From a phage, in sequence record PZ445523.1: a stretch of 64,000 nucleotides of DNA; one strand, 5' to 3'. Under the pieces are notes generated by a model. That model did not search any database, was not told the DNA's origin, and saw only the letters and a program-made list of their open reading frames with translations. This document shows positions 17,094 to 53,205 of the stretch, piece after piece. Within the stretch, counting starts at the first letter, position 1, and every line of letters begins with the position of its first letter. A program made the translations under genes and the position numbers.

Positions 17094-20000
17094 ATGGCCG
17101 AGATTAAAAGAAAGTTCAGAGCAGAAGATGGTCTGGACGCAGGTGGCGATAAAATAATCAACGTAGCTTTAGCTGATCGTACCGTAGGAACTGACGGTGT
17201 TAACGTTGATTACTTAATTCAAGAAAACACAGTTCAGCAATATGATCCAACTCGTGGATATTTAAAAGATTTTGTAATCATTTATAATAATCGTTTTTGG
17301 GCAGCAACGGATAATATTCCAAAACCTGCTGGAAATTTTAATAGAATTCGTTGGAAAGCATTACGTACTGATGCTGTATATACAACCGTATCATCTGGAC
17401 CATATCAATTAAAATCCGGAGAAGCAATTTCAGTAGATACATCAGTTGGCAATGACATTGAATTTACTTTACCACCTTCTCCGCTTGATGGAGAAACCGT
17501 AATAATTCAAGATATCGGTGGAAAACCTGGCATAAATCAGGTTAAAATAAATTCTTCAAATCAGAGTATTGTCAATTTTAGAGGTGAACAGGTACGTTCA
17601 GTTTTAATGACTCATCCAAAGTCACAGATGGTATTCATTTTTAATAACCGTTTGTGGCAAATGTATGTTGCTGATTATAGCAGAGAAGCTGCAATTGTTA
17701 CTCCATCGACTGCATATCAAGCACAATCTAACGATTTTATCGTACGTAGATTTACTTCTGCCGCACCGATTAATGTTAAGCTTCCAAGATTTGCCAATCA
17801 TGGAGATATCATTAATTTCGTTGATTTAGATAAATTAAATCCACTTTATCATACAATTGTTACGACATATGATGAAACAACGTCAGTGCAAGAAGTTGGA
17901 ACTCATTCCATTGAAGGCCGTACATCGATTGACGGTTTCTTGATGTTTGATGATAATGAGAAATTGTGGAGATTGTTTGACGGGGATAGTAAAGCACGTT
18001 TACGCATTATAACAACTAATTCTAATATTCGTCCAAATGAAGAAGTCATGGTATTTGGCGCGAATAATGGAACAACCCAAACAATTGAACTTCAGCTTCC
18101 GACTGATATTTCTGTTGGTGATACTGTTAAAATTTCCATGAATTACATGAGAAAAGGACAAACAGTTAAAATCAAAGCTGCCGGTGAAGATAAAATTGCT
18201 TCTTCAGTTCAATTGCTGCAATTCCCAAAACGCTCAGAATATCCGCCTGAAGCTGAATGGGTAACAGTTCAAGAATTAGTTTTTAACGGTGAAACTAATT
18301 ATGTTCCAGTTTTACAACTTGCTTATATAGAAGATTCTGATGGAAAATACTGGGTTGTACAGCAAAACGTTCCAACTGTAGAAAGAGTAGACTCTTTAAA
18401 TGCTTCTACTAGAGCAAGATTAGGCGTAATTGCTTTAGCTACGCAAGCTCAAGCAAATGCTGATTTAGAAAATTCTCCACAAAAAGAATTGGCAATTACT
18501 CCAGAAACGTTAGCTAATCGTACTGCTACAGAAACTCGCAGAGGTATTGCAAGAATAGCAACTACTGCTCAAGTGAATCAGAACACCACATTCTCTTTTG
18601 CAGATGACCTTATCATCACTCCTAAAAAGCTGAATGAAAGAACTGCTACAGAAACTCGTAGAGGTGTCGCTGAAATTGCTACGCAGCAGGAAACTAATAC
18701 AGGTACTGATGATACTACAATCATCACTCCTAAAAAGCTTCAAGCCCGTCAAGGTTCTGAATCATTATCTGGTATTGTAACTTTTGTATCTACCGCAGGT
18801 GCTACTCCAGCTTCTAGTCGTGAATTAAATGGTACGAATGTTTATAATAAAAACACTAATAATTTAGTTGTTTCACCTAAAGCTTTGGATCAGTATAAAG
18901 CTACTCCAACGCAACAAGGCGCAGTAATTTTAGCAGTTGAAAGTGAAGTAATTGCTGGACAAAGCCAAGAAGGATGGGCAAATGCGGTTGTAACGCCAGA
19001 AACGTTACATAAAAAGACATCAACTGATGGAAGAATTGGTTTAATTGAAATTGCTACGCAAAGTGAAGTTAATACAGGAACTGACTATACTCGTGCAGTC
19101 ACTCCTAAAACTTTAAATGACCGTAGAGCAACTGAAAGTTTAAGTGGTATAGCTGAAATTGCTACACAAGTTGAATTCGACGCAGGCGTCGACGATACTC
19201 GTATCTCTACACCATTAAAAATTAAAACCAGATTTAATAGTACTGATCGTACTTCTGTTGTTGCTCTATCTGGATTAGTTGAATCAGGAACTCTCTGGGA
19301 CCATTATACCCTTAATATTCTTGAAGCAAATGAGACACAGCGTGGTACACTTCGTGTAGCTACACAAGTTGAAGCTGCTGCAGGAACATTAGATAATGTT
19401 TTAATAACTCCTAAAAAGCTTTTAGGTACTAAATCTACTGAAGCGCAAGAAGGTGTTATTAAAGTTGCAACTCAGTCTGAAACTGTGACTGGAACGTCAA
19501 CAAATACTGCTGTATCTCCAAAAAATTTAAAATGGATTGTGCAGAGTGAACCTACTTGGGCAGCAACTACTGCGATAAGGGGCTTTGTTAAAACTTCTTC
19601 TGGTTCAATTACATTCGTTGGTAATGATACGGTAGGTTCAACACAGCCATTAGAATCATATGAGAAAAATGGTTATGCAGTATCACCATATGAATTAAAT
19701 CGCGTATTAGCAAATTACTTGCCATTAAAAGCAAAAGCTGTAGATAGTAATTTATTAGATGGTCTAGATTCGCTCCAGTTCATTCGTAGGGACATTGCAC
19801 AAACAGTTAATGGTTCACTAACCTTAACCCAACAAACGAATCTGAGTGCCCCTCTTGTATCATCTAGTACTGCTACATTCGGTGGGTCAGTTTCAGCAAA
19901 TAGTACATTAACTATTTCTAATACTGGAACAGCAACTCGATTGATTTTTGAGAAAGGACCTCAAACTGGAACAAACCCGGCTCAAACGATGACTGTCAGA

Positions 20001-50980: not shown

Positions 50981-51190
50981 TTAAATTACATGATTATTTA
51001 TAATAAATTCTCGCGGAACGTTAAAATACCCAATTTTAGTTAATATAACAACATCGCCGTTAATAATTACCGGAGAATAATCGGCTGGAGCATTAAATTT
51101 CCAATGGGCTCTAATATTATATCCATCAGAACCAAATGCTCGACTAGCCGGTCTCCCGGCTTTTTGCCATGCATAAAAATCAAATTTCAT
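50981..51190 (-). CDS. hypothetical protein (soc.1 position)
   Basis: 69 aa ORF. Confidence 0.45.
   Translation of the reverse strand: MKFDFYAWQKAGRPASRAFGSDGYNIRAHWKFNAPADYSPVIINGDVVILTKIGYFNVPREFIINNHVI
50995..51002 (-). promoter_or_regulatory. late promoter (TATAAATA) for soc
   Basis: Plus strand TATTTATA = minus TATAAATA, about 30 nt upstream of soc ATG. Confidence 0.65.
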
Positions 51191-51390
51191 TTTGAATGCT
51201 CTATAATTAATTTTAAGGCTTCTTCACGCACCAACTTGTCTAATGGTATATGCCCAGTTTTAATTATGTAAGCTTTGTGGAGCTGATTAGATAAGAGCTC
51301 ACATACGAGCTCCTTGTCATAATCTTTAAATAGCTGGTCAATACGTTTCTTGCGGGCTTTCTTGAGCTGGCGTTTATTTAAACGAGCCAT
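51187..51390 (-). CDS. hypothetical protein (soc.2 position)
   Basis: 67 aa basic ORF. Confidence 0.45.
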   Translation of the reverse strand: MARLNKRQLKKARKKRIDQLFKDYDKELVCELLSNQLHKAYIIKTGHIPLDKLVREEALKLIIEHSK

Positions 51391-51908
51391 TAATAACCTC
51401 GGTCTTGACGAGCGAAATTTTCAGCATTTTTCAGATAATAAAGTTTAAAGATTTCTTCAGCTGACATTCCAAGAGCAATAAATTTATTCATGAAAAAGTG
51501 AAATTGGTCAATCAGTTCAAATTTAATTTCAAGCTGATCTTCGGGAGATAAATCTTGAATTTTCTTGGATTGCATTTCAGAATAACGTTTCTTCCAAGGT
51601 TTCCATACAGCAGAAGCTTCTTTTTCACCATTACTCATACCACCAAGAGAAGTATATAGCTCGCGAGTTTCGTCTGCGATATAATCGTCTTGGTTTCGCA
51701 GCCAAGCAAGAACTTCTCCTGCGGTTTCAAGTGAATCAGGATGACGATTTGTTTCTGGCTTATCATTAGCCAAACGAATCTGTAAAGACCGCTGCATATC
51801 AAGCATAACCTGCAATGGGTCTTTTTCATCACCGAGAATATCCCAGTATTCATTTTGAGCTTTATCAACACCTTCGATCAAATGAGCACATTCATTAAAG
51901 TGAGCCAT
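51390..51908 (-). CDS. 56: dCTPase/dUTPase gp56
   Basis: Start taken at MAHFNECAHL (172 aa, T4 gp56 is 171) with AAAGGAAAAATAATG RBS; track ORF N-terminal extension lacks RBS. Confidence 0.88.
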   Translation of the reverse strand: MAHFNECAHLIEGVDKAQNEYWDILGDEKDPLQVMLDMQRSLQIRLANDKPETNRHPDSLETAGEVLAWLRNQDDYIADETRELYTSLGGMSNGEKEASAVWKPWKKRYSEMQSKKIQDLSPEDQLEIKFELIDQFHFFMNKFIALGMSAEEIFKLYYLKNAENFARQDRGY

Positions 51909-51979
51909 TATTTTTCCTTTCAATTCATGGGTTAGTAGATTAATTATACAATAAATATATAAAGCAATAAGGAGGACAT

Positions 51980-52180
51980 ATGGTACAAAAATTAATGGCA
52001 CTTGTTGATGCCATAAAAGGTAATAAGAAACGTATAGCTTTTACTATTTCTGCTATGGTAGGAATTTTACTCTGGAACTTTATTTTATCACCTGTTGCAA
52101 TTGCTCATGATGTTAATATTCCAGTAGTTACTCTTGATACATTCGTAGATTTAGCATTTGCTTTAGTTGGGTTAATTTAA
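51980..52180 (+). CDS. small membrane protein on opposite strand, at the position of T4 gene 69/dam
   Basis: 66 aa ORF with TAAGGAGG 4 nt before ATG; TM segment; no overlap with other coding except 3 nt of gene 61 stop. Confidence 0.45.
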   Translation: MVQKLMALVDAIKGNKKRIAFTISAMVGILLWNFILSPVAIAHDVNIPVVTLDTFVDLAFALVGLI

Positions 52181-53205
52181 ATCTTAGCATATTTAGATAG
52201 TCGCATTTTAGCCATCAACCCCTGGGCAATATTATTTTTCATATATTCCATAATTTGTTCAGTGGTTGCACCTTCCTTTCTAATCATATCATTAACATCT
52301 TTTGATTTCCAGGGAGATTTATCCCAAAACATAACCCTTTCTCCTGCATCAACTAATTTAGTCATTCGCTTAATAGTGTCAGGATGACGAGGTTCATTAT
52401 CTAAAACCCACACACGTCTATCTTTAAATGGAACAACTTCTAGGTCTAATTGACCACCCGTAATAGCTATACCATTTTCAATAAAAAGTGAATCTATAGG
52501 TCCTTCTAGAACATATACATCACCATCTTTAACTCGTTCGACTCCATAGATTTTTGTTGCCTCAGGATAAGCTTTGATGGTGATATATTTTTGAGGAGCA
52601 TCTTTCTTTAATGCACGTCCTTGAAACGACTCAGCTTTTCCATTAGCATTATAAATTGGAATAACAAGACGAGGCTCAGAAATTTCCTTTTTGTATGTTC
52701 CCGGTGCTATACTATTAACTAATTTAGGCCATTCGGTTGTAAACCAAAGATATTTCCATTTATCCTTTGGAATACAACGAGCTTTTACATATTTTATAAT
52801 TGGATGGTCTTCCGCCAGTTTATCTAATCTAACACATGACGGAAGAGATTTAATTATTTTCTTCTCAGGTTGTTTAGGAAGTTCTTTAGGTTTTTCTACT
52901 GGACGACTTTTACCTTTTTCTTTTCTTATTTCAAAGATATACTCACGATATAAATCAGGTTCAAACTCCTTTAAATATATTCCGATTGGTGCATGATAGT
53001 TACAGTTATAACAATGAATATTTCCTTCATTATTATCACCATAATACCATCCACGGGCTTTATTTTGGTCGGTTTTTGAATCTCCACACACTGGGCATCT
53101 AAACCGTAATTTAAAAGTTGAACTATTATTTACTTGTGTGAATTTAGGTAAATGAGCTAATGCACGGTATGCAAACTCATTATCAATCCAAGGTATTGAT
53201 GACAT
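52177..53205 (-). CDS. 61: DNA primase gp61
   Basis: 342 aa, same as T4 gp61; N-terminal zinc ribbon CPVCGDSK ... CYNCNYH. Confidence 0.93.
   Translation of the reverse strand: MSSIPWIDNEFAYRALAHLPKFTQVNNSSTFKLRFRCPVCGDSKTDQNKARGWYYGDNNEGNIHCYNCNYHAPIGIYLKEFEPDLYREYIFEIRKEKGKSRPVEKPKELPKQPEKKIIKSLPSCVRLDKLAEDHPIIKYVKARCIPKDKWKYLWFTTEWPKLVNSIAPGTYKKEISEPRLVIPIYNANGKAESFQGRALKKDAPQKYITIKAYPEATKIYGVERVKDGDVYVLEGPIDSLFIENGIAITGGQLDLEVVPFKDRRVWVLDNEPRHPDTIKRMTKLVDAGERVMFWDKSPWKSKDVNDMIRKEGATTEQIMEYMKNNIAQGLMAKMRLSKYAKI

Follow-up and report, generated by a model that had tools for sequence, protein, structure and literature searches.

The gene order around the DNA primase gene (gene 61) has been described for both T4 and T6. 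In the T4T annotation (HM137666) it reads soc - segF - 56 - dam - dam.1 - 61, and in T6 soc - T6ORF029 - soc.2 - 56 - dam.1 - 61, with dam.1 on the plus strand in either case. The small gene carries this name in the T4T and T6 annotations (proteins ADJ39749 and AXN58073, respectively). It is unannotated in the T4 RefSeq record NC_000866.4, the most used T4 reference, which is blank between dam (ending at 17625) and gene 61 (starting at 17935); in its numbering, the ORF spans 17738-17938.

Here, we analysed a stretch of phage DNA of 64 kb (hereafter the window), in which an earlier note had described a 66-aa ORF as a membrane peptide gained, in convergent orientation, in place of dam. This feature is already known: it is the ordinary annotated dam.1, present in T4 itself and in about a thousand relatives. 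Taken as a whole, it is very probable that the ORF is the orthologue of T4 and T6 dam.1, that is, a single-copy, Tevenvirinae-wide gene arranged tail-to-tail with the primase gene and coding for a late inner-membrane product.

Gene content between genes 56 and 61

The window originates from a T6-like Tequatrovirus. Its ends correspond to T6 positions of ~131.9 kb and ~28.0 kb, and a 2-kb stretch around the ORF shares 98.1% identity with phage QOTSP and 97.3% with T6. Two minus-strand genes flank the ORF: gene 56 (dCTPase; 51390..51908), a T6/T2-type allele with 77% amino acid identity to T4 gp56, and gene 61 (DNA primase, 342 aa; 52177..53205), which shares 99% amino acid identity with T4. The gap between them measures 268 bp, in agreement with the roughly 270 bp given earlier for the distance from the start of gene 56 at 51908 to the stop of gene 61 at 52177. 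The dam.1 orthologue occupies 51980..52180 on the plus strand and encodes the 66-aa, 7.1-kDa product MVQKLMALVDAIKGNKKRIAFTISAMVGILLWNFILSPVAIAHDVNIPVVTLDTFVDLAFALVGLI; its assignment as a small membrane protein gene of PHROG 2024 draws on the ORF itself, homology, dN/dS, the codon-position pattern, transmembrane (TM) prediction and AlphaFold. At its 3′ end, the ORF shares four coordinates with gene 61 (52177-52180), the two TAA stops being interleaved in TTTAA; the 3-nt overlap reported before was a trivial miscount. The other properties ascribed to the ORF, i.e., opposite strand, 66 residues, a strong ribosome-binding site and a TM helix, agree with the coordinates, the Shine-Dalgarno site, the hydropathy profile and the AlphaFold helix. 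A search with an HMM against all six-frame ORFs of the window and of T6 showed dam.1 to be single-copy, with no paralogues.

Comparison with T4 reveals the same ORF at 97% amino acid identity, immediately upstream of dam and tail-to-tail with gene 61, and the peptide has thus not been gained in the phage studied here. The orthologues of T4 and T6 resemble that of the window throughout (95-97% amino acid identity): the tail-to-tail arrangement with gene 61, the Shine-Dalgarno site and the upstream ATAAATA core are all shared, as is a full-length match to PHROG 2024. They differ in that the window allele carries the substitutions N10D and G44D, that T4 has dam inserted just upstream and that T6 has ATT in place of the ATG. 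The T6-type gene order is exactly that of the window, identical gene for gene at 97% nucleotide identity and without any architectural difference. What had been regarded as a departure from the T4 architecture is therefore the T6 layout, which forms the majority among Tequatrovirus records (a contiguous dam-less junction of 56 and dam.1 in 294 records versus T4-type dam DNA in 184 phage records) and is also found in Mosigvirus and Gaprivervirus. The description of T4 as carrying both dam and gene 69 between genes 56 and 61 holds for dam only; segF, formerly known as gene 69, is found on the other side of gene 56, between it and soc. The earlier reader probably mistook the ORF for something new because of the annotation gap in NC_000866.4.

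Several side observations concern these alleles. Position 10 is affected at nt 52007 and position 44 at nt 52110 (GGT to GAT). While N10D is common to some relatives, G44D is absent even from the closest relative, QOTSP; Gly44 is invariant in every other homologue examined, and Asp occurs in the window allele only. G44D may alter or abolish function, or may stem from an error in sequencing. The similarity of gp56 to T4 (77% amino acid, 78% nucleotide identity) next to a gp61 of 99% identity marks the known SegF/gene 56 region as the site of a sharp mosaic boundary. Downstream of gene 56, the segF slot is taken by two small ORFs (51187-51390 and 50981-51190) matching T6 soc.2 and T6ORF029. In T6, both independent records, one of them NC_054907, have ATT at the site of the dam.1 ATG, at positions 2181-2183 of the locus extracted from the other, while ATG is found in all other Tequatrovirus sequences examined; the T6 gene is annotated from Met6, which lacks a Shine-Dalgarno site at the proper distance. 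Database labels within the family, for example in NC_054907 (144-329 of the extracted locus) and UniProt A0A482MZV5, are inconsistent and include 'putative head morphogenesis protein', 'Holin', 'putative transmembrane protein' and 'hypothetical protein'. The first of these was assigned by similarity to the annotation of another phage, and gene 56 in NC_054907 is annotated as similar to 'ferredoxin'.

According to long-standing reports, the adenine methylase of T2 and T4 is not induced by T6. Consistent with the earlier statement that dam is missing from the slot between genes 56 and 61, tblastn at E-values of up to 10 detected no homologue or remnant of Dam or SegF in the 64 kb of the window, apart from noise of 13-19 residues elsewhere in it. 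A search with T4 Dam in T6 from 14,051 to 135,000, which together with the window makes up a complete T6-type genome, was likewise blank, and a dam gene elsewhere, as the earlier note had envisaged, did not come to light. In genomes of the T4 type, a cassette of ~0.9 kb that comprises dam and its upstream region is inserted at a point corresponding to 51949..51968 of the window, as located by BLAST blocks and alignments: T4T ~1589-2487 of the extracted locus (~0.9 kb) stands opposite window positions 51949-51968 (~20 nt). From just 5′ of the dam.1 Shine-Dalgarno site rightwards, T4T and the window are 98% identical, compared with 78% over gene 56 and its upstream 40 nt. Mosigvirus and Gaprivervirus have no dam at this slot. 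Karamvirus CkP1 also lacks it there and has a 101-aa minus-strand ORF instead, while in fPS-2, to give an example among other phages, a homing endonuclease sits in the dam slot. At this locus, parsimony points to the dam-less state as the probable ancestral one.

These comparisons also bear on the suggestion, prompted only by the comparison with T4, that the region is a degraded dam gene or that dam has moved elsewhere in this phage. We found nothing in its favour. Besides the blank tblastn searches of the window and of the T6 remainder, which also turned up no frameshifted remnant, the 268-bp gap can be aligned over its full length to the T4 sequences on either side of the dam cassette, and the slot is dam-less in the other genera sampled. 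We therefore regard a decayed or relocated dam as extremely improbable. The cassette of ~0.9 kb is facultative, and its absence, which is common and typical of T6-type genomes, is unconnected with the ORF. The idea that the ORF is specific to dam-less phages was rejected, as it is found in T4, T2 and other dam-bearing genomes.

The apparent loss of dam together with the gain of a peptide thus resolves into two known facts: many T-even phages, T6 included, are dam-less, and all of them, T4 included, carry dam.1. The gene is real and under-studied, but it has not been gained and has no connection to the missing dam. The small gene left out of NC_000866.4 is under clear purifying selection and conserved in roughly a thousand Tevenvirinae genomes. 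Because of this omission, transcriptomic and proteomic studies restricted to annotated features never report dam.1.

Distribution and coding constraint of the dam.1 family

A tblastn search with the 66-aa product, the database comparison proposed in the earlier note, returned 693 phage records including T4, and 686 of these matched at a coverage of at least 80%. The PHROG 2024 profile is matched with an E-value of 3.1e-29 over residues 2-66, corresponding to profile positions 1-65 of 65. Homologues show an identity of ~50% in Mosigvirus and Gaprivervirus and of ~30% in Karamvirus, and they are always located on the plus strand between genes 56 and 61. Syntenic homologues between these two genes are found in four Tevenvirinae genera, and the primase-adjacent copy keeps the stop overlap with gene 61. 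When divergent members served as queries, 935 and 130 records were obtained, which include phages of Klebsiella, Enterobacter and Pectobacterium as well as Dhakavirus. A phmmer search against 1.8 billion representatives gave merely seven matches, all belonging to the same family except for one weak match in several stretches to a 1,255-aa protein; the small number of matches indicates that the family is confined to Tevenvirinae. In IMG/VR, a single-protein search retrieved five near-identical loci.

Gaprivervirus VR26 possesses two tandem, diverged copies of the dam.1 family (extracted-locus positions 1995-2192 and 2201-2401), with a mutual identity of ~22%. It is the second type that neighbours the primase gene in Dhakavirus (JS10, WG01) and in some phages of Klebsiella, Enterobacter and Pectobacterium; in the RefSeq record of JS10 it is unannotated.

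Within Tequatrovirus, pairwise dN/dS values mostly range from 0.07 to 0.3, with two near-identical pairs at 0.6-0.9, and variable sites are distributed over codon positions 1/2/3 as 6/3/12. Across genera, nucleotide identity at these positions amounts to 0.52/0.80/0.37, a pattern characteristic of selection on a hydrophobic protein. The dam.1 region is not spanned by any minus-strand ORF to which this pattern could be due. A chance ORF was rejected by the codon-position and dN/dS tests, and by the same substitution patterns dam.1 is a genuine gene under purifying selection. It evolves faster than its neighbours: in comparison to Mosigvirus, gp61 is 74%, gp56 69% and Dam.1 52% identical. Truncated variants occur occasionally, in a few cases. 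Judging from these variants and from the ATT in place of ATG in both T6 sequences, dam.1 is probably dispensable in the laboratory.

Candidate expression signals around dam.1

In T4, early and middle transcripts are of a single polarity, while late transcripts run in either direction (Geiduschek and Kassavetis review, PMC2988020). In the T6 annotation from 14 to 69 kb, dam.1 is the only plus-strand CDS, its direction being opposed to that of all early and middle genes. As dam.1 lies on the strand that is transcribed only late in T4-type phages, we propose that it is expressed late. Most likely, transcription would occur only at this stage and from a gp55-type promoter of its own, giving an mRNA with a short leader. 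The candidate for this promoter is the late-promoter-like motif AATAAATA at 51950..51957 on the plus strand, directly followed by TATATAAA; these are the A/T-rich near-late-promoter motifs that had been noticed upstream of the ORF. The motif matches 7/8 positions of TATAAATA, from which it differs by A(-13), and predicts a start near 51963, equivalent to about 17,722 in NC_000866.4, and a leader of ~17 nt. In a list of 50 T4 late promoters, A(-13) is the most frequent departure from the consensus and occurs at nine sites (PMC2988020). Alone, AATAAATA amounts to no more than chance in A+T-rich DNA, with 6 copies in the window versus 13.1 expected; its weight stems from conservation across genera, as Tequatrovirus, Mosigvirus and Gaprivervirus all keep the ATAAATA core 16-22 nt 5′ of the ATG within otherwise diverged intergenic sequence. 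The Shine-Dalgarno site TAAGGAGG (51968..51975, plus strand) is located 4 nt 5′ of the ATG, and AGGAG(G) is present within the last ~13 nt 5′ of the ATG in every genus examined. Translation would start from this strong site.

Counted against dinucleotide-preserving shuffles of the window, both AATAAATA and TATAAATA (6 found versus 9.7 expected) are under-represented, which would fit an avoidance of spurious late promoters. One copy of TATAAATA lies at 50995-51002 on the minus strand, just upstream of soc.

A pattern scan further revealed a MotA-type middle promoter of gene 56 at 51943..51969 on the minus strand, composed of the box TATTGCTTTA (51969..51960), an 11-nt spacer and the -10 element TATAAT (51948..51943); the MotA consensus and a spacing of 12+/-1 were taken from PMC2988021. 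In fPS-2 the same element is annotated as 'predicted middle promoter'. The plus-strand late motif at 51950-51957 is the reverse complement of the middle-promoter spacer, so that the two promoters stand back to back. With respect to the MotA box, the late motif is situated inside the spacer in the window, outside the box in Mosigvirus and abutting it in Gaprivervirus. In T4, dam splits the pair: the MotA box stays with gene 56, its spacer being devoid of the motif, and ATAAATA stays with dam.1, where there is no MotA box. We also considered that the conservation of ATAAATA might be due to the middle promoter of gene 56, and rejected this since its offset from the MotA box varies among genera and the T4 motif segregates with dam.1. 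The locus would thus offer a tidy example of overlapping divergent promoters, i.e., a middle one for gene 56 and a late one for dam.1, that were pulled apart by the insertion of dam in T4.

A terminator-like hairpin (ATGGCATCAACAAGTGCCAT) with a U-run is present on the minus strand at 51985..52014 (hairpin 52014..51995). It falls within codons 6-12 of dam.1, at a distance of ~165 nt downstream from the stop of gene 61. It is annotated as a terminator in fPS-2 and restricted to Tequatrovirus. The DNA of the hairpin codes for dam.1 on one strand and is a probable terminator on the other. On the plus strand, we found no terminator-like site for about 4 kb downstream of dam.1, so that a late transcript would be expected to continue into gene 61 as antisense RNA.

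A literature search for 'dam.1' returned no papers, ribosome-profiling literature was uninformative, and a published T4 omics paper uses an annotation that lacks the ORF. A dRNA-seq preprint (bioRxiv 10.1101/2024.04.04.588121) reports 150 T4 transcription start sites, 22 of them antisense.

Two further readings of the locus draw on these signals. According to one, the frame is an untranslated by-product, and the region is kept as the 3′ UTR and terminator of gene 61 and as the promoter of gene 56. The hairpin and the middle promoter do lie in or beside the ORF, which T4 RefSeq leaves unannotated and which has no ATG in T6. However, regulatory DNA of this kind would not account for the three-base periodicity across genera, for dN/dS values well below 1 or for a frame that is intact in 686 of the 693 records; moreover, the Shine-Dalgarno site and the length persist down to 30% identity, and the hairpin is genus-specific while the ORF is not. 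We thus consider it quite unlikely that the frame has no function.

According to the other, the main function resides in the RNA: a late rightward transcript from AATAAATA, antisense to gene 61, would help to shut off primase and early mRNAs, and the peptide would be secondary. This is in line with the tail-to-tail stop overlap, which leaves no space for a terminator, with the antisense overlap expected from the missing plus-strand terminator, and with the transcription of both strands at different times that is known from several T4 sites (PMC2988020). Nevertheless, constraint at the amino acid level and invariant residues would remain unexplained, and an antisense RNA has no need for a strong, conserved Shine-Dalgarno site; an antisense effect is also compatible with a functional protein. 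A primary role of the RNA therefore appears very unlikely, even more so than an untranslated frame, and we favour dam.1 as a late gene expressed for its protein.

In this late reading, dam.1 resembles T4 late genes with variant TATAAATA promoters (gp55/gp33/gp45) in having an 8-bp box of the A(-13) type followed by an A+T-rich segment, a short leader and an orientation allowed only for late transcripts. It differs from them as a lone late-direction gene inside a block of early genes, and its promoter is a candidate.

Predicted properties of Dam.1 and related membrane proteins

The N-terminal ~18 residues of Dam.1 are basic (net charge +4/+5) and followed by a strongly hydrophobic stretch (residues ~19-42) that contains the invariant W32-N33 and P38; the Kyte-Doolittle maximum for a 19-residue span is 2.0 at residues 23-41. 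Invariant across homologues are W32, N33, P38, P48 and G64. With G44 added to this set, the window protein retains five of the six, having Asp at position 44. After the TM segment comes a conserved A-H-G...P48 stretch, which leads into a short helix that carries D53 and D57 on one face and is hydrophobic at its end. AlphaFold, run on a shallow alignment, predicts helices at residues 2-12, 16-42 and 52-63 with a mean pLDDT of 80. The positive-inside rule predicts a cytoplasmic N-terminus and places the last 24 residues in the periplasm or at the interface. Thus, the product would be inserted into the inner membrane through one TM helix (about 16-42), the basic N-terminus remaining cytoplasmic, and the A-H-G...P turn and the short acidic amphipathic C-terminal helix would be placed at the periplasmic face.

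Searches of Pfam, NCBIfam and PADLOC gave no matches, PHROG 2024 is listed as 'unknown function', and Foldseek against BFVD returned family members only, one of them labelled 'Holin', with no informative fold match. Our guess is that Dam.1 is a non-essential late envelope accessory, which might act in lysis timing, lysis inhibition, late superinfection or exclusion, or in interactions with host defence. Such a role at the envelope late in infection is a tentative possibility.

The segment P38-V-A40-I-A42|H43, with its equivalent P-x-A-x-A/T|H/Q-G in all homologues, resembles a signal-peptidase site. Dam.1 could be a pre-peptide, which signal peptidase I would cleave at P-x-A-x-A|H-G to release the 24-residue acidic hydrophobic peptide HGVNIPVVTLDTFVDLAFALVGLI late into the periplasm or medium. 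If so, its targets could be the holin/antiholin system or cells that are superinfected or nearby. It would represent a secreted phage peptide, and its gene, which the T4 reference annotation omits, would be the only one in late direction within the T-even early region. We regard this as a long shot: the h-region is long (about 19-24 aa) and contains the invariant W-N, which favours an uncleaved anchor.

Lysis by T4 is known to depend on the T holin. The 'Holin' entry of the family in UniProt gives a bare label, as do the other database labels in the entries examined. Dam.1 has one strong TM domain, but the charged C-terminal tail of holins is absent, the protein having a hydrophobic end (…AFALVGLI) with no basic tail. 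There is also no linkage to endolysin or spanin genes, as the neighbours encode dCTPase and primase, and T6 e, t, rI and pseT.2/.3 are located elsewhere. Compared with class II holins and pinholins, the T4 RI antiholin and T4 Imm, Dam.1 exhibits no sequence or fold similarity, but it is of similar size and, like them, has a TM helix after a basic N-terminus as well as a further short hydrophobic helix.
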